This document shows, piece by piece, positions 8,271 to 18,040 of a DNA stretch of 64,000 bases. The notes below the pieces were generated by a model that worked only from the letters and a program-made list of their open reading frames with translations, had not been told where the DNA came from and did not search any database. The DNA comes from Candidatus Poribacteria bacterium. Lineage in GTDB: Bacteria > Poribacteria > WGA-4E > PCPOR2b. Where the stretch lies: positions 2,732,633-2,796,632 of the forward strand of contig OZ242351.1 in the NCBI GenBank assembly GCA_965208675.1. Reading direction: 5' to 3'. Numbering within the stretch: position 1 is the first letter of the stretch; every line of letters starts with the position of its first letter. A program made the translations under genes and the position numbers.

Positions 8271-9389
8271 TCAGTACGCCGCCTCATACAGTTCCAGCAA
8301 TTCGACTTCCCCGACTTGCCGTGGATTAAACCCGCCCGTCCATTGCGCCGCGGCTTCCTTTGCCAAATTGGGCAAATCCACTCTGTCAATATTGAAATCT
8401 CTCAGCCGCACCGGCAACCGTGCGGCGGTAATCAATTCGAAAATGCGTTCATCTAACGGTGAAGGATACAACTCGCGGTAAAGCGCGCCGACCGCCTGTC
8501 GGTTGAATCCCACAACGTGGGGCAGCATTAATCCCACCGCAACGCCGTGAATTACACCATATCGACTTGTCAAAGGATTGGCGCAGGCATGCGCTGCGCC
8601 GAGCATGGAGTTTTCTATCGCAGCACCAGCGAGATGCGCCCCCAGCAGCATTCGTCCTTGGGCGTCAACATTCTCGAGATTGCGTAGAACAGTTTCGAAA
8701 TTCCCCTCAAGCAGCCGCCACGCCTCTCTGGCAAACGCCTGCGAGATGGGATTCCGTTTCGTCGAAACATAACTTTCCACAGCGTGGGCGATTGCATCAA
8801 TGCCCGCCGCCGCCGCCACGTGGTTCGGGACGGTTGCCGTCAACACCGGATCGAGAATTACGGTTCGGAATCGGGCTTTTTTGTCGCCGCAGGCCATCTT
8901 TTGGCGGGAAACCTCTTGGGTGATTAACGCAAAAGACTGGGCTTCGCTGCCCGTGCCCGCGGTGGTCGGAACGCCGATGGAGGGGAGCATCGGTTTGGAG
9001 GCTTTGCCTTCGCCCCAATAATCCGCCATAGCGCCGCCGTTCGTGAGGAGGAAGTTGATTCCTTTAGCGCAGTCCATTGCGCTGCCGCCGCCTAAACCGA
9101 CGATTAGGTCAATCTTTCCTTGTGATGCCGCAAACCGAACACCGGATTCAACGTGCCGAGTTGTCGGATTTTCTTCTACACCGTCAAAAACAGAGACCGC
9201 TAACGATTCCTTCCTCAAGGATTTGAGCGCGTTTTCCACAATTCCGGCGCTGACGACGCCCGAATCGGACACAACCAGAACGCGCGTGCCGCCTAATTCC
9301 TTTGTCAAAGCCCCCAACTGAACGAGTGTATTCTCGCCGAATATGACGCGCGTACTCGGTTGAAAATCGAAAGGTTGCATTGCCCTCAA
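8271..9389 (-). CDS. Iron-containing alcohol dehydrogenase family protein
   Basis: 372 aa. GGGSAMDCAK and histidine-rich metal-site region (AHAVES..., HGVAVG). Overlaps the upstream ALDH gene by 4 bp, suggesting an operon. Confidence 0.85.
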   Translation of the reverse strand: MRAMQPFDFQPSTRVIFGENTLVQLGALTKELGGTRVLVVSDSGVVSAGIVENALKSLRKESLAVSVFDGVEENPTTRHVESGVRFAASQGKIDLIVGLGGGSAMDCAKGINFLLTNGGAMADYWGEGKASKPMLPSIGVPTTAGTGSEAQSFALITQEVSRQKMACGDKKARFRTVILDPVLTATVPNHVAAAAGIDAIAHAVESYVSTKRNPISQAFAREAWRLLEGNFETVLRNLENVDAQGRMLLGAHLAGAAIENSMLGAAHACANPLTSRYGVIHGVAVGLMLPHVVGFNRQAVGALYRELYPSPLDERIFELITAARLPVRLRDFNIDRVDLPNLAKEAAAQWTGGFNPRQVGEVELLELYEAAY

Positions 9390-10828
9390 TTTTTACGGCG
9401 CGTACTGGTCATCTGAAATGCCCGTTGCCGATACAGGTGCTCAAACAGATTGCCTTCGTGCGGCTGATCCCAAGCGATTTGATTGGTGCTAATCGCACCT
9501 AAATTAAGGCGTTCCACATCTGGGGAGCCAAGTAACTCATTGATAAAAGCTTCGTCTTCGGTGAAAGCGCTGACCACCAAGGTTGAGCCGATACGTTCCA
9601 AAATCTCTGGTTGCGGCACTTCTACCACACTGACGAAGGGAAACAGGTATTCTGTGTTCGCCAGTGGATGTTCCGGGCTTTCACACCAGATGACGGTTGG
9701 GAGAAGATAGGTGCAACCGGCTTTTTCAACTAGCCTTCCGCCCCCTCGAACTTCGGCTGTCACATCGCTAGCACCGGGTGTTTTCAGTTGATCGTCAATG
9801 AGACTTGAAAGCTGACGGGCGAACTTTGGATTCGAAAATGCGGCGATTTGTGCCTGCGGATCGTCCAGCGGCAGCGCGTCAATTTGCGCCAACCTTTTTG
9901 CTAAAGCCCCCGCGATTTCGCGGCTATGGGCGGGCGCCCAGATTCCGGAGGCGTTAATGCAGGACCTTCCACCGTTATCGACGATGGATGCGATCATGAC
10001 ATCCAGATATATTTCCCAATCTGAAATCTCGTCATTCGCGATGACAATCTTGCTACGGCCCGGCCCGTGAATCTGCACACGTGGATCGGTTTTCCATGGC
10101 GTCACGGTTGATTCGCCGCCGAACAGCATTGAGCGGCCGCTGCGAAGTAAAATTTCAGCGGCGCCTGTGTAGTCCGTTGGATAAAAGCCGAACGCCGCTG
10201 GAGGACAGTCCGATGCAATCAAAGCTTGCGCGATGCGGTAAGGCGTCCAAGGCTCTTCGCCTCCCGGTTTGAGAATCAGCGGGGTTTTCATCGGAATGGC
10301 AGGCAGCCAGAGCGAATGCACGCCTGGGGAGTTACTGGGCAGCACCGCCCCTAACACATTCGTTTGACGTACGTAGCTCAAGGGACGTTTATCTTGCACG
10401 CCCCAACCGTCGTCGAGTATGGAGAGATTCAGTCCGCGCGTCAACCCTCCCAGAACCGCTTCCATTTCATCCAGAACCGTCCGGATTTTGTTCATGTTGT
10501 TTCGGCAGAGACTTTCCGGCATGCCTGTCGTCGCAGAAAGCTGTCGAATGTAGTCGCCGGGCGATTGCGATTCGGCGCCCAAGGGAAGAACCGAATCAGT
10601 AAAACAATGGGCGGCTTTCTTACAAATTGCAACCAGTTCCGATACGGAAAGCGATTCAAGGGCGCGTTTGTGATGCGCGGCTGTGGTTAAGTCCTTGGCA
10701 ATTAACCCCCGATTCGACTGACTCACCTCAGCGATTGGTTCGCCTGTCTGGACGTGCCGCACGCGGTGGATATTTAGGCTGCGATAAGGGCATCCAGCTC
10801 GTAGAATCGGAATGTGTATCATTGTCAA
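9386..10828 (-). CDS. Aldehyde dehydrogenase superfamily protein (possibly acylating)
   Basis: 480 aa. ALDH-like catalytic region NGGRSCINASG and LILKPGGEEP. Translationally coupled to the Fe-ADH gene. Confidence 0.7.
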   Translation of the reverse strand: MTMIHIPILRAGCPYRSLNIHRVRHVQTGEPIAEVSQSNRGLIAKDLTTAAHHKRALESLSVSELVAICKKAAHCFTDSVLPLGAESQSPGDYIRQLSATTGMPESLCRNNMNKIRTVLDEMEAVLGGLTRGLNLSILDDGWGVQDKRPLSYVRQTNVLGAVLPSNSPGVHSLWLPAIPMKTPLILKPGGEEPWTPYRIAQALIASDCPPAAFGFYPTDYTGAAEILLRSGRSMLFGGESTVTPWKTDPRVQIHGPGRSKIVIANDEISDWEIYLDVMIASIVDNGGRSCINASGIWAPAHSREIAGALAKRLAQIDALPLDDPQAQIAAFSNPKFARQLSSLIDDQLKTPGASDVTAEVRGGGRLVEKAGCTYLLPTVIWCESPEHPLANTEYLFPFVSVVEVPQPEILERIGSTLVVSAFTEDEAFINELLGSPDVERLNLGAISTNQIAWDQPHEGNLFEHLYRQRAFQMTSTRRKN

Positions 10829-10888: not shown

Positions 10889-11665
10889 CTACGATCTCTT
10901 TTTCTTGCCGCCCTTCTTTCGACTTACGCCCAGCGCTTCAATTTCTTCCCATAGATTTTGATAGGACTTTGCGGCGGGGGACTTGGGCGCAAAGACCGAG
11001 ACCGGCTCTCGTTGGATTCCCATTCTTTCGACATGGGACAGATAAGGAATAGCGGTCTGCAGAACACCGTTGAAAACGCGTAACGACTCTTGCATCAGTT
11101 CACGGTGGATTTTTTTCCGCCTATCAACCATCGAAAAAAAGGTGTACAGGTTGCCCGAATCATAACCGCTTTTATCAAGGAAATCGATTAACTGCTTGTG
11201 TGTACGCACGGACAGCGTGGTTGGAATTAGCGGAACGAGGAGGGAGTCCGCAGCGTCGAAAATATTCTCCGCAAGCAGATCAATGGTACACGGACAGTCC
11301 AAAGTGATTAAGTCGTATTCATCCCGAAGCGGCTCTAGAATTCGTTTTAACCGACGTCTCGAACGCTTCAATTGATGAAAAGTGACCGCCAAATTTCGAT
11401 GCGTAAAATCCGATGGCAGCAGATCCAAATTGTCAAAATCCGTGCCTTTGATATTTCGTTCGATTCGCTTGCCGCCTTTAACGAACCCCTTTGTCCTTGA
11501 TTTGAGTTTGGGTTTGACTCGAAGGTAATATGTCGCAGAACTTTGCGCATCCAGATCGCAGATAAGGGTTTTTAGCCCCGCTTGAGCCGCTAAATATGAC
11601 AGGTTAACGGTTGTAGCAGTCTTTCCGACGCCGCCTTTATTACTGTAGATTGCCAGTGTTTTCAT
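10889..11665 (-). CDS. ParA/MinD-family P-loop ATPase (deviant Walker A) with lysine-rich C-terminal tail
   Basis: SNKGGVGKTATT deviant Walker A, DLDAQ, LITLDCP Walker B-like. C-terminus VSRKKGGKKKRS. No parB nearby. Confidence 0.85.
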   Translation of the reverse strand: MKTLAIYSNKGGVGKTATTVNLSYLAAQAGLKTLICDLDAQSSATYYLRVKPKLKSRTKGFVKGGKRIERNIKGTDFDNLDLLPSDFTHRNLAVTFHQLKRSRRRLKRILEPLRDEYDLITLDCPCTIDLLAENIFDAADSLLVPLIPTTLSVRTHKQLIDFLDKSGYDSGNLYTFFSMVDRRKKIHRELMQESLRVFNGVLQTAIPYLSHVERMGIQREPVSVFAPKSPAAKSYQNLWEEIEALGVSRKKGGKKKRS

Positions 11666-11682
11666 TCAACAAACTCGCGCAA

Positions 11683-13230
11683 TTACGAAGCGAAAAGTTC
11701 CCGGAACAACTTTCTGTTTGAAGAGGAAGCAAAATCGTTGAAAATATTGGAAAATGAGTTTTTAACGGTCTGTTTTTTTTGACTCAACGCCCCGATTAAA
11801 CTGCCTATTGCGAGAATTGTCCTTTTGGACTGCGAATTCGCTATAGGCAGTTCACCAGTAATCGTCTGAAGATATTCGTCCTGAATGCACACATCCTGAA
11901 AATCCCCAAGATTATCTTGCAAATTTTTCAACTGGTTTATTAAAATACTAATTTTTGGATAGGGAAACAGACTGGAAAAGAACTCCATCAAATACCGCAG
12001 TTTTTTGCATTCAATCCTGAGTTGATGCAACAGCTCATCTCCGGTATTCTCAAAGCTCAGGCGTCCAAGTTTAACGACATTCCGGTACCTCCTGTAGATT
12101 CGGTTCCGCGCAAGAAAAATTATTGGAACACCTGCGTTAAGTGCCGGTGAAGTGTTTTTCGACGGTTCGTCAAGAAAGGCTTCCCAATCCTTCAGCATCC
12201 GCGAGAGCCGTTTGGAGTTTAAATTGCCAACAACTTCCTTTAACGCTTCCGATCGTTTCACACGTAAATGGTCAAACAGCGGCTCAATGTCAACTTGAAA
12301 TACATTCGGAAGCATCGCCTTGTAGTTTCTTTCGTTAAGGAGATAAACATCCAAATCCCGCAGCGGATTCGAGAGTTTGCCCAATGCGGCGAACTCCCGC
12401 CTAAACCGGTCGATTGCATCCTCCGGGAACACAGACTTAATCTGGCTTAAAGCGGAACGTGTCCGGCGGATAGCAACGCGAAAATCGTGCAAAAATTCAG
12501 TGTCAAGGTCCGCCTTGATGCCCTCCACATTGCGATTGATGACTTTCAGTAGAAGCCGCAGCACAATTTTAGTCGCCTCATCAGCACGCATATCCGGGTC
12601 GAGTTTTAATTTCAATTTTGTAGAATAATCTCCCGGGTACTGATTTACCGCTCCCAAGATGTTGCGATAGATATCTTCCTCCCCAACTGTTGGAAATCCC
12701 AAATCGTGGAATTGGTTGGCCAACGTTCGAAAGTATGCCGGATATCCTCGAACCTGCTCTAAGGTCAGATGAGTTGACATCGCGGGCGCGTCAGGTTTAA
12801 GCCTGAACGCTTCGTAAACGAAGCGCGCCACTGTTTTTTCGTCGGGGTTCAAAATGCGGTAGGAATTTGAATGGGAGACGATTTCAGCGCGCTTCAAAAG
12901 CGCGCGTACCTTTATAATCGGCGACAGCAGGTCTTTCAATCGGCTGTCAGGAAAATCCCATATGAAGACGGGTTGAGCGCGGATGCGGGCGCGCTCCATC
13001 AACGTGTTTTGAGAAAGGTGATGCAGTACAAAGTGACTTCCAGTTCCGTACAAAGCAAGTGAATTATTGAATAAACGCCAGTCGAAGGTGTCGTAAATTG
13101 TAAAACGCTCTGTGGCGGACTGCTCTTCTTTGGTGGAGTACGATGCATCAGCCGATTCACGAATCAAACGCTCTTGACTATACCCGGCAGGTAGCTTAAA
13201 TTTCAGATAATTATGCAAGTCTGCCTCCAC
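11683..13230 (-). CDS. CHAD domain-containing protein (N-terminal ~220 aa of unknown function)
   Basis: HDFRVAIRRTRSALSQ and CKKLRYLMEFF are typical CHAD helical-motif signatures. Sits 17 bp upstream of the ParA-like gene. Confidence 0.7.
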   Translation of the reverse strand: MEADLHNYLKFKLPAGYSQERLIRESADASYSTKEEQSATERFTIYDTFDWRLFNNSLALYGTGSHFVLHHLSQNTLMERARIRAQPVFIWDFPDSRLKDLLSPIIKVRALLKRAEIVSHSNSYRILNPDEKTVARFVYEAFRLKPDAPAMSTHLTLEQVRGYPAYFRTLANQFHDLGFPTVGEEDIYRNILGAVNQYPGDYSTKLKLKLDPDMRADEATKIVLRLLLKVINRNVEGIKADLDTEFLHDFRVAIRRTRSALSQIKSVFPEDAIDRFRREFAALGKLSNPLRDLDVYLLNERNYKAMLPNVFQVDIEPLFDHLRVKRSEALKEVVGNLNSKRLSRMLKDWEAFLDEPSKNTSPALNAGVPIIFLARNRIYRRYRNVVKLGRLSFENTGDELLHQLRIECKKLRYLMEFFSSLFPYPKISILINQLKNLQDNLGDFQDVCIQDEYLQTITGELPIANSQSKRTILAIGSLIGALSQKKQTVKNSFSNIFNDFASSSNRKLFRELFAS

Positions 13231-13475
13231 AGCGTTGTCTTCGCACCGTCATTGATTTCGCCATCGCATTTCACAAGTTTCATTGTATCAGAACCGCTGT
13301 ATTTCATCAATAAGAATACCGCTGTGTCAGCAGACGCAGCGTTCATTATAGCATGATTGGGATCAGTGTCAATCATATTCAACTGCTTCATCCGTGAGGA
13401 GATAGTGCACCACATTCAGCGTGAGGCATTGGAGTGAAGAAACCCCAAATGCGTATTGTCACGGGTTCAAAATTA

Positions 13476-13504
13476 TTGACACGCATTGCGTCGGGTGGTA
13501 GAAT
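13476..13504 (+). promoter_or_regulatory. sigma-70-type promoter for rarA (TTGACA-17 bp-TAGAAT)
   Basis: TTGACA at 13476-13481, a 17-bp spacer, TAGAAT at 13499-13504, about 75 bp upstream of the rarA start. Confidence 0.5.
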
Positions 13505-15903: not shown

Positions 15904-16725
15904 ATGAAAAAGACAGTTGTACGATTGACCTTTTTCTGCGTTGGCTTGGTCTTCGCCGGTTTGGTGTTGACGAGTATCAGTGATGCCGAAATTGACATGA
16001 CAGGCGCGAGGGCTATTTGGCTCTTTGACGAAGGGGAAGGTGATACAACTAGCGATATTTCTGGCAATGATTTTCACGCAACCCTCGCAAATGGTGCGGC
16101 ATGGACGGACGGCAAGTTCGGAGCAGGTGTGAGTTTCGATGGAGCGGATGATTATGTGGAAGCGAATGCCCCAGTCGTTGTCGAAACAGTCGATTTCACA
16201 ATGGGTCTTTGGCTAAATCCAGGCGAGACTCAATCCCAGTGGGCTAATGTCCTCTCCAGTCATGGCAGCGATCCAGGACCTCCGGAAATTTGCCGGGGAA
16301 TGTCCATTGAACAGGTTAGCGACTCCGCAAATCTGTTCTACTTTATCGCGGGTGGCGGGGAAAACGGTTGTTGGCTTGGTCAAGCGGCGCAAACCCAACT
16401 GGCAGCCGGTGTTTGGCAGCATTTCGTCATTGTACGGCAGGGGGCTACATTGACACATTACCTGAACGGCGAGGTATCCGCGGAGGGACGCGCTCAAAGA
16501 GATACACCCTACGCACCTGCCACACTTAATTTCCGCATCGGAAACTGGAGCGTCTTTGAGGGCAGGGGGTACAATGGCACAGTTGACGACGCTTTTATTT
16601 TCGATAGAGCACTGAGCCACGATGAAATTACCAGCCTTATGGACGATGGCTTTGATGTTGAAATCGCCGTTTCCCCGGCAAGGAAAATTTCTGCGGTCTG
16701 GGGAGGGATAAAAACACTATTTTAA
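15904..16725 (+). CDS. Secreted LamG/concanavalin A-like lectin-fold domain protein
   Basis: Signal peptide. LamG_3-like pattern (DGKFGAGVSFDGADDYVE..., FTMGLWLNPGE..., WQHFVIV..., LTHYLNGE, DDAFIFDRALSHDEI). Confidence 0.7.
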   Translation: MKKTVVRLTFFCVGLVFAGLVLTSISDAEIDMTGARAIWLFDEGEGDTTSDISGNDFHATLANGAAWTDGKFGAGVSFDGADDYVEANAPVVVETVDFTMGLWLNPGETQSQWANVLSSHGSDPGPPEICRGMSIEQVSDSANLFYFIAGGGENGCWLGQAAQTQLAAGVWQHFVIVRQGATLTHYLNGEVSAEGRAQRDTPYAPATLNFRIGNWSVFEGRGYNGTVDDAFIFDRALSHDEITSLMDDGFDVEIAVSPARKISAVWGGIKTLF

Positions 16726-17209: not shown

Positions 17210-18040
17210 ATGAAGAGCACATCTGTCAGATTAACCGTCTTTTGTATCGGTCTGATCATCATCAGTCTGGTGTTAACAGGTAAAACCGACGCCCAACTTG
17301 ACATTGAAGGCGCTGTAGCGATATGGCTTTTTGACGAAGGTAGAGGCGATAAAGTAGCCGATGCCTCCGGCAATGGTAATGATGGAGAGTTTGTAAATAA
17401 TCCAGAATGGGTCGAAGGAAAATTTGGCGACGCTTTGGATTTCGATGGAATTGTTGACTATGTACAGATAAATGTCCCAGTCGTTGTGGAAACCGATGAC
17501 TTCACAATGGGCTGTTGGGTGAATCCAGGAAAAGTCCAAAAACAGTGGGCAAATATTCTCTCTAGCCATGGCGGCGATCCAGGTCCTCCGATAAATTGTG
17601 AGGGAATGTCCTTTGAACAGAATAGCGACACTCCAAATCGGTTCTACTTTATCGGGGGAGGTGCGCCGCGGCAATGTTGGCTTGGCCAAGCGGCGCAAAC
17701 TCAACTGAAGAGCGGTGTTTGGCAGCATTTCGTCGTTGTACGCAAGGATGGTAAACTGACACATTATCTGGACGGTGAGGTGTCCGCGGAGGTAGGCCTT
17801 CCACAAGACCTCGCGGTTGCCACAGATAGGTTTCGCATCGCTAACTGGAGTCGCCACGGGAACCGGGAATTCCAGGGGAAGGTTGACGAAGCCATGGTTT
17901 TCAGTCGAGCACTAAGCCACGATGAAATTACCACGGCCATGAATGAAGGTATTGCCGAGATATTGCCAGTTGCCCCAGTGGACAAAGCGCTCACTACGAC
18001 GTGGGGGACATTAAAATGGATGAATCGGAGAAGAGAATAA
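17210..18040 (+). CDS. Secreted LamG/concanavalin A-like domain protein (tandem paralog of 15904-16725)
   Basis: About 55% aa identity to the upstream paralog and the same motif order. Signal peptide. Confidence 0.7.
   Translation: MKSTSVRLTVFCIGLIIISLVLTGKTDAQLDIEGAVAIWLFDEGRGDKVADASGNGNDGEFVNNPEWVEGKFGDALDFDGIVDYVQINVPVVVETDDFTMGCWVNPGKVQKQWANILSSHGGDPGPPINCEGMSFEQNSDTPNRFYFIGGGAPRQCWLGQAAQTQLKSGVWQHFVVVRKDGKLTHYLDGEVSAEVGLPQDLAVATDRFRIANWSRHGNREFQGKVDEAMVFSRALSHDEITTAMNEGIAEILPVAPVDKALTTTWGTLKWMNRRRE

Follow-up and report, generated by a model that had tools for sequence, protein, structure and literature searches.

What does a ParA/MinD-type ATPase do when no ParB gene adjoins it and its neighbor instead encodes a protein with a CHAD domain? 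The question is raised by a two-gene locus of a Candidatus Poribacteria bacterium, which lies in a stretch of 64,000 nucleotides (nt) of contig OZ242351.1 (positions 2,732,633 to 2,796,632; this whole 64-kb stretch is called the window below). A reading made from the letters of the window, here called the sequence-only reading, had described two open reading frames on the minus strand, 17 nt apart, and had speculated that they form a polyphosphate (polyP)-granule positioning or partitioning system. We recovered both frames as it described them: a gene for a protein with a TTM-like N-terminal domain followed by a CHAD domain, and, 17 nt from its stop codon to the next ATG, the ATPase gene (Table 1). 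By analogy with McdA/McdB, we propose, with roughly even confidence, that the pair is a conserved, co-translated module that positions polyP granules. That the module acts on polyP in one way or another we consider very probable.

The coupling of the two genes was sampled from both sides. One sample took the ATPase as the query and one genome per species (80 loci), and the other took an alignment of the CHAD protein as the query against metagenomes (80 loci, in 64 of which the sequence runs on for at least 400 nt past the CHAD gene). ATPase relatives of about 45% identity or more, where enough upstream DNA was available, have a CHAD homolog of ~520 amino acids (aa) directly upstream on the same strand, with a single exception (L074). 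Both genes are present in 68 genome loci; they overlap by 1 or 4 nt in 32 of these, are separated by 0-30 nt in 30, and lie further apart in the remaining 6. These 68 loci are spread over about 7-8 phyla. Judged by record titles, the carriers are Poribacteria, Desulfobacterota (Desulfobacterales and Desulfobulbales), Chloroflexota (Anaerolineae and Caldilineae), Chlorobiota (Chlorobium and Prosthecochloris), Gammaproteobacteria, Verrucomicrobiota (Opitutales), a KSB1-labelled bin, and Actinomycetota (Solirubrobacterales, Microthrixaceae, and Jatrophihabitans). Locus L001 (record OZ242326.1) has an ATPase 99% identical to that of the window, and the generic ParAs in the sample (L076 and L078-L080; ~30% identity) have no CHAD gene nearby. 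Sampled from the CHAD side, an adjoining ATPase was scored in 59 of the 64 loci. Beyond these 59, the ATPase of L145 is present and interrupted by the contig end, and L093 carries, between its CHAD and CYTH genes, an ATPase remnant of ~100 aa (2113-2418) that appears to be a decayed gene copy. The flanking genes change between lineages while the CHAD-ATPase pair remains together, and this, taken with the spread over phyla, rules out chance or recent synteny. Hence, the co-occurrence that the sequence-only reading had put forward as a check is found across many phyla, whichever of the two genes is used for sampling.

The genes around the pair point to polyP. In Desulfobacterota, the pair is embedded in polyP clusters whose members were confirmed by Pfam: PPK1, PPK2 (often in tandem), a small canonical CYTH protein with an ExExK motif, a SixA-like histidine phosphatase, a metallophosphoesterase, an Na/Pi-PhoU transporter, and a lysine-rich helix-hairpin-helix protein. 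Among genome loci, the CHAD gene is immediately preceded by PPK1 in 11 of 53, and the ATPase gene is immediately followed by CYTH in 15 of 61; the corresponding figures for metagenome loci are 25 of 49 and 19 of 46. At least one polyP or phosphate gene occurs in 38 of 65 genome loci and 59 of 80 metagenome loci. Gammaproteobacterial loci have PhoU, a PstS-type binding protein, and a CNNM/CorC transporter near the pair, and in Poribacteria, Chlorobiota, and Actinomycetota the genes flanking it are unrelated to polyP.

Three features of these clusters deserve a description of their own. First, the SixA-like histidine phosphatase is the pair's commonest neighbor, occurring in 28 loci from genomes and 43 from metagenomes (for example, L041:6912-7421), and one protein of 685 aa, P0362, has such a phosphatase (His_Phos_1) fused to the N-terminus of a TTM-like and CHAD protein; the frequency and the fusion together suggest that the phosphatase and the TTM-CHAD family are functionally linked. 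Second, the helix-hairpin-helix protein, ~200 aa long and rich in lysine, stands near the pair in the polyP clusters of Desulfobacterales at 15 genome loci (L024:2690-3289 on the plus strand, and also L006-L008, L017, L019, L023, L040, and others). It could be a nucleoid tether akin to the histone-like AlgP or to PhaF. Third, in several Desulfobacterales loci two genes intervene between the ATPase and CYTH genes (L031:1821-2465 and L015:6859-7623, both on the plus strand), one for a product of ~207 aa without a Pfam match and one for a guanylate-kinase-like product.

That enzymes and not structural genes surround the module (PPK1 upstream; CYTH, the SixA-like phosphatase, PPK2, and the metallophosphoesterase nearby) favors a different explanation, in which the ATPase would be an ATP-dependent switch for polyP metabolism or granule biogenesis, not for cell-wide positioning, and the TTM-CHAD protein its granule-bound effector. 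Such a switch might act on the nucleation, size, or coalescence of granules, or on whether PPK1, PPK2, or phosphatases can reach them. The natural fusion in P0362 fits this explanation, and several relatives within the ParA/MinD superfamily, MipZ and FlhG among them, are regulators and not movers. We nevertheless regard the switch as unlikely, if the foremost of the alternatives. The ATPase retains all features of dimerizing, matrix-binding ParA proteins, among solved structures it is closest to ParA/Soj and MinD proteins, and the pairs of Chlorobiota, Actinomycetota, and Poribacteria, which have no polyP enzyme nearby, are a better fit to a self-contained two-protein device.

The CHAD protein itself is also linked to polyP. 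Its C-terminal half has a Pfam CHAD match (PF05235; aa 224-455, 183.7 bits), the fold of two four-helix bundles, and the basic residues that contact polyP, and it aligns with CtCHAD of Chlorobium tepidum (Q8KE09; PDB 3e0s and 6qv7) at ~1e-54, with 37% identity over 292 residues. Passages of the structural study state that CtCHAD binds polyP, that it was solved with a polyP 9-mer, and that mutation of His253, Arg256, Arg260, or Arg296 weakened polyP binding (PMC6537752). The equivalents of these four residues (H248, R251, R255, and R291) do not vary among the 62 family members compared, and a further basic residue, K435, is present in 58 of the 62. CHAD proteins are also cited, in two other papers, as localizing to polyP granules in vivo (PMC9239181 and PMC13556221). 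The crystallized domain probably belongs to the ATPase-linked family described here, judging from sequence comparison, because the best matches of CtCHAD are Chlorobiaceae proteins that precede an ATPase gene (47%-50% identity) and because its residue numbering implies an N-terminal extension of ~200 aa like that of the TTM-CHAD family. The CHAD half is thus homologous to CtCHAD and the phosins, with identical polyP-contact residues; the published account, in the passages at hand, treats the isolated CHAD domain and mentions neither the N-terminal domain nor the ATPase neighbor.

The N-terminal half was reached by structure and not by sequence. Every sequence route to CYTH failed: Pfam CYTH gave no match among 25 diverse N-terminal domains, even at E = 10, an hhalign comparison with the bona fide small CYTH proteins of the same loci returned a probability of 0.3%, and a profile search of the PDB found nothing. 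Fold comparison alone gave the link, and by that comparison the domain has the eight-stranded triphosphate-tunnel fold. The glutamates of the ExExK motif are gone, acidic residues at these positions occurring at a frequency of 0.06 or less in 62 sequences. The tunnel is therefore probably non-catalytic, a prediction from the loss of the motif, and we propose that the domain serves as a ParA-interaction or regulatory module. A search of 1.84 billion representatives returned 1093 matches to the domain at E up to 0.001, and the full-length matches are ~505-525 aa long, with the domain at residues 1-205. The architecture recalls E. coli YgiF, in which a TTM/CYTH triphosphatase is fused to CHAD; the TTM-CHAD protein differs from YgiF in having neither the ExExK motif nor a Pfam CYTH signal in its N-terminal domain, in being ~80 aa longer, and in its coupling to a ParA-type ATPase gene. 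The sequence-only reading had reckoned that a typical CYTH triphosphatase in an unrelated operon context would speak against its proposal. Instead, we found a domain without ExExK, Pfam CYTH, or CYTH-profile similarity, in a context that is conserved.

The ATPase begins with MKTLAIYSNKGGVGKT and matches Pfam AAA_31 (122 bits) and CbiA (52 bits), both above their cutoffs. It has the defining features of the ParA/MinD superfamily, namely a deviant Walker A motif with its signature lysine, a switch I aspartate, and a Walker B aspartate. The KGGVGKT motif that the sequence-only reading had noted can be read directly from the translation, and Walker A, switch I (D37-L-D39), and Walker B (L-D-C-P) are conserved in 74 family members. 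None of the curated NCBIfam cutoffs (ParA partition, MinD, BcsQ, RepA, and SopA) is reached: the scores of the ATPase are 74.5 bits for the ParA partition model (NF041546; cutoff 180), 55.5 for MinD (TIGR01968; cutoff 212.9), and 53 for BcsQ (TIGR03371; cutoff 157.85). Its best PDB sequence match scores 69 bits, the closest solved relatives being the ParA/Soj and MinD proteins mentioned above. Scores below all NCBIfam cutoffs and of at most 69 bits to solved ParA and MinD proteins place the ATPase in a distinct clade.

Three established assignments were considered for the ATPase and rejected. A ParA of the ParABS type was set aside since CHAD and aldehyde-dehydrogenase-like genes stand where ParB would be, and the score is below the cutoff; the absence of an adjoining ParB-like gene had also been remarked in the sequence-only reading. 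MinD was rejected because the C-termini are short and variable, no min genes adjoin the pair, and the score is too low; no MinD-type C-terminal helix was found in the ATPase family. BcsQ was rejected on its score and because no neighborhood map contains cellulose synthesis genes. Databases nevertheless label members of the clade as "cellulose biosynthesis protein BcsQ" or "chromosome partitioning protein" (P0004, P0005, P0007, and many others). Both labels are probably misnomers, since the window ATPase falls well below the cutoffs of both models.

Membership of the ParA/MinD superfamily and the partitioning label are what can be said for a DNA-partition or chromosome-organization system in which CHAD would replace ParB. 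We consider it very improbable. The ATPase misses the partition model by the margin given above, and no helix-turn-helix or ParB domain was found among the domain matches of the CHAD protein. A legend on the specificity of CtCHAD lists single-stranded RNA and a 54-nt DNA as ligands tried and goes on to say that heparin, "however," was bound (PMC6537752); we take this legend to mean that the nucleic acids tested were not bound. A weaker version of the same alternative, that the adjacency of the two genes is functionally meaningless, founders on the overlaps of 1-4 nt over 7-8 phyla and on the variable flanks, which exclude chance.

What sets the CHAD-linked ATPases apart is their charge. For the core, the median values are a pI of 9.6 and a net charge of +13. 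The net charge of a segment just after switch I (aa 44-76; Table 1) lies between +5 and +9 in CHAD-linked ATPases; the corresponding values are -1 to -2 for L076-L080, which are generic Soj-like ParAs, and 0 for L072, a relative that lacks a neighboring CHAD gene. In MinD, the region equivalent to this segment takes part in binding the partner at the dimer interface. A basic cluster, DRRKK, appears to align with the DNA-binding arginine R189 of B. subtilis Soj; this lead and the basic core are the hints of an ATP-dependent, non-specific DNA binding of the ParABS kind. The sequence-only reading had pointed to another basic element, the lysine-rich tail, as a possible binder of DNA or polyP. The tail is real; it is found only in the window and its closest poribacterial relatives (L001-L003, L081, and L082), other members ending in short, variable tails. 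Being lineage specific, it cannot be the DNA- or polyP-binding element of the family.

The restriction of the basic segment to the CHAD-linked clade, together with the basic core as a whole, allows for the ATPase to bind polyP and not DNA, with polyP as its matrix or activator. The TTM-CHAD protein would then be a MinE-like or competing regulator, and the outcome would be a dynamic coat of ATPase that shapes or disperses granules. We rate this as improbable: the basic surface is equally suited to non-specific DNA binding, the DRRKK cluster sits where R189 of Soj appears to align, and the neighboring gene already encodes a dedicated high-affinity polyP binder. Slightly less probable still, in our estimation, is a variant in which polyP itself, through the clade-specific basic segment, is the binding surface or activator of the ATPase and the inactivated TTM-CHAD protein is the granule partner that triggers hydrolysis. 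If that were true, polyP would be a third kind of matrix for ParA/MinD proteins, besides DNA and membrane.

We favor a positioning module built as follows. The CHAD half of the 511-515-aa protein would attach to the granule surface, and its catalytically degenerate TTM-like domain, turned to the cytoplasm, would engage the ATPase. The ATPase would dimerize on ATP by means of its deviant Walker A motif and bind a polyanionic matrix, most probably the nucleoid. The granule-bound partner would then trigger ATP hydrolysis and release the ATPase locally, and the resulting ATPase gradient would space the granules and share them between daughter cells. The cross-phylum coupling, the polyP context, the intact ATPase motifs and polyP-contact residues, and the TTM fold without ExExK are direct observations; from them we infer the contact between the two proteins, the binding of a matrix by the ATPase, the stimulation of the ATPase by its partner, and the positioning of granules. 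The proposal of the sequence-only reading therefore divides in two: its link to polyP is well supported by conservation, gene clusters, and contact residues, and its positioning function is a step beyond these.

Several observations weigh against this proposal. Looking for ppk genes nearby, as the sequence-only reading had advised, succeeded in many other genomes, where PPK1, PPK2, and other genes for polyP or phosphate lie beside the pair, but not here: homologs of PPK1, PPK2, CYTH, SixA-like, Na/Pi, PstS, and metallophosphoesterase proteins, searched with queries from related loci, are absent from the 64-kb window. The window also leaves room for a longer operon, which may extend into the aldehyde-dehydrogenase-like and Fe-alcohol-dehydrogenase genes downstream of the pair; no terminator-like site was found between the ATPase gene and the former. 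This downstream arrangement is kept in Poribacteria only. The coupling is not obligatory, since L147, L150, and L162 in the metagenome sample have the CHAD protein in a polyP cluster without the ATPase, and since L072 (41% identity to the window ATPase) and L074 have no CHAD gene nearby. Related Desulfobacterales contribute many of the sampled loci, so that the locus counts given above are not phylogenetically independent. Finally, polyP granules in S. elongatus are spaced independently of its only ParA-family protein (PMC13556221), and their spacing in P. aeruginosa involves the histone-like AlgP (PMC9239181). ParA-independent solutions therefore exist, and a CHAD-ParA positioning system is clearly not universal.

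Among known systems, McdA/McdB is the nearest in design. It too is a two-gene module in which an orphan ParA-type ATPase without ParB is encoded beside a binder of a non-DNA cytoplasmic inclusion, and the nucleoid-gradient mechanism by which it works is the one that we propose for the CHAD-ParA pair. The two differ in other respects: similarity to McdA is remote (39 bits to 6noo), the CHAD-linked ATPase has the signature lysine, the partner is a TTM-like and CHAD protein and not of the McdB type, the inferred cargo is the polyP granule, and there is no carboxysome gene context. The pair is therefore not a member of McdAB, and by analogy its working mode may be similar. With ParABS (Soj/ParA and ParB-parS), the ATPase shares the deviant Walker A core, the switch I aspartates, and Walker B; it differs in its strongly basic core and family-specific basic insert and in having no ParB or other centromere-binding protein adjoining. 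AlgP of P. aeruginosa and PhaF/PhaM, which act in the segregation of polyhydroxyalkanoate granules, serve the same purpose of spacing storage granules along the nucleoid, but they are passive histone-like tethers without an ATPase (PMC9239181), whereas a CHAD-ParA system would be active and ATP driven.

Similar in gene order is the Acidithiobacillus folD-ppk-parA-CHAD cluster, for which two papers map a conserved neighborhood of ppk1, parA, and CYTH-CHAD genes; both take parA to serve the partition of plasmids or chromosomes and assign it no role at granules (PMC6416229 and PMC10892726). A ParA-like mechanism was listed among possible models for polyP inheritance by Henry and Crosson in 2013 (PMC3806658), and the 2026 study of S. 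elongatus calls the mechanism of polyP positioning "yet-to-be-discovered" (PMC13556221). Apart from the Acidithiobacillus maps and these two statements, our literature search found no paper that ties a ParA-type ATPase to polyP granules or phosins.

The locus in the window can now be described in full (Table 1). Neither a second ParA-like gene nor a second CHAD gene was found within the 64 kb. The true start of the CHAD gene is more likely the TTG at 13218 than the GTG at 13230, because GGAGG stands 5 nt ahead of it and because the resulting product of 511 aa has the length of the closest homologs. No known RNA was assigned to the leader or the operon, a riboswitch being rejected since a search of Rfam at E up to 1 was without a match. 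The pair is flanked by an aldehyde-dehydrogenase-like gene on one side and RarA/MgsA on the other, and a second strong sigma-70-type promoter match (13476-13504, plus strand) faces the divergent rarA/mgsA-like gene. Directly 3' of the ATPase gene, at 8271-10828 on the minus strand, the divergent aldehyde-dehydrogenase-like gene (Pfam Aldedh, 48.7 bits) is overlapped by an Fe-alcohol-dehydrogenase gene whose best NCBIfam match is ErcA-like. Further away, two paralogous Laminin_G_3 (LamG-like) proteins of ~275 aa are encoded on the plus strand (15904-16725 and 17210-18040). Both have hydrophobic N-terminal segments, which are putative signal peptides, and a 654-aa TPR protein comes next.

Table 1. 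Features of the CHAD-ParA locus, in coordinates of the 64-kb window
Feature	Position	Strand	Details
ParA/MinD-type ATPase gene	10889..11665	-	258 aa; open reading frame and domain matches
Lysine-rich C-terminal tail, SRKKGGKKKRS	10892..10924	-	aa 248-258 of the ATPase
Family-specific basic segment after switch I	11438..11536	-	aa 44-76 of the ATPase, ATYYLRVKPKLKSRTKGFVKGGKRIERNIKGTD; net charge +9
Deviant Walker A, N9-KGGVGKT-16 (SNKGGVGKT)	11618..11641	-	Signature lysine K10, P-loop lysine K15
TTM-like and CHAD protein gene	11683..13230	-	515 aa as the maximal open reading frame; Pfam CHAD match
CHAD domain, polyP-binding module	11692..12624	-	aa 203-513
N-terminal domain, divergent TTM/CYTH fold without ExExK	12616..13230	-	aa 1-205
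G+C-rich hairpin in the predicted 5' leader of the CHAD-ParA transcript	13319..13341	-	Terminator-like stem called on both strands
Putative promoter upstream of the CHAD gene	13345..13372	-	TTGACA-16 nt-TATAAT with TG extension; sigma-70 consensus match 12/12

If the positioning proposal holds, the pair is a ParA/MinD cargo system whose novelty lies in its cargo and in the type of its adaptor. How polyP granules are spaced and inherited is an acknowledged open question, for which the pair offers a concrete, widespread, and directly testable two-gene candidate. Cultured carriers are on record (Desulfopila sp. IMCC35008 and Marinospirillum perlucidum), and the pair is also carried by the Chlorobiaceae, from which a CHAD domain has already been crystallized with polyP. 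The analysis suggests what a large family of CHAD proteins, ~510-520 aa long and unmatched by Pfam in their N-terminal half, may do, provides an example of a catalytic TTM domain that has apparently been turned into a non-catalytic module, and corrects the database names "BcsQ" and "chromosome partitioning protein," in all probability misapplied to this clade of ATPases. The carriers include Microthrixaceae, Desulfobacterota, and sponge symbionts, and groups such as these are associated with polyP accumulation and phosphorus cycling. Should the proposal be true, polyP granules would join the list of cargoes of ParA/MinD ATPases.

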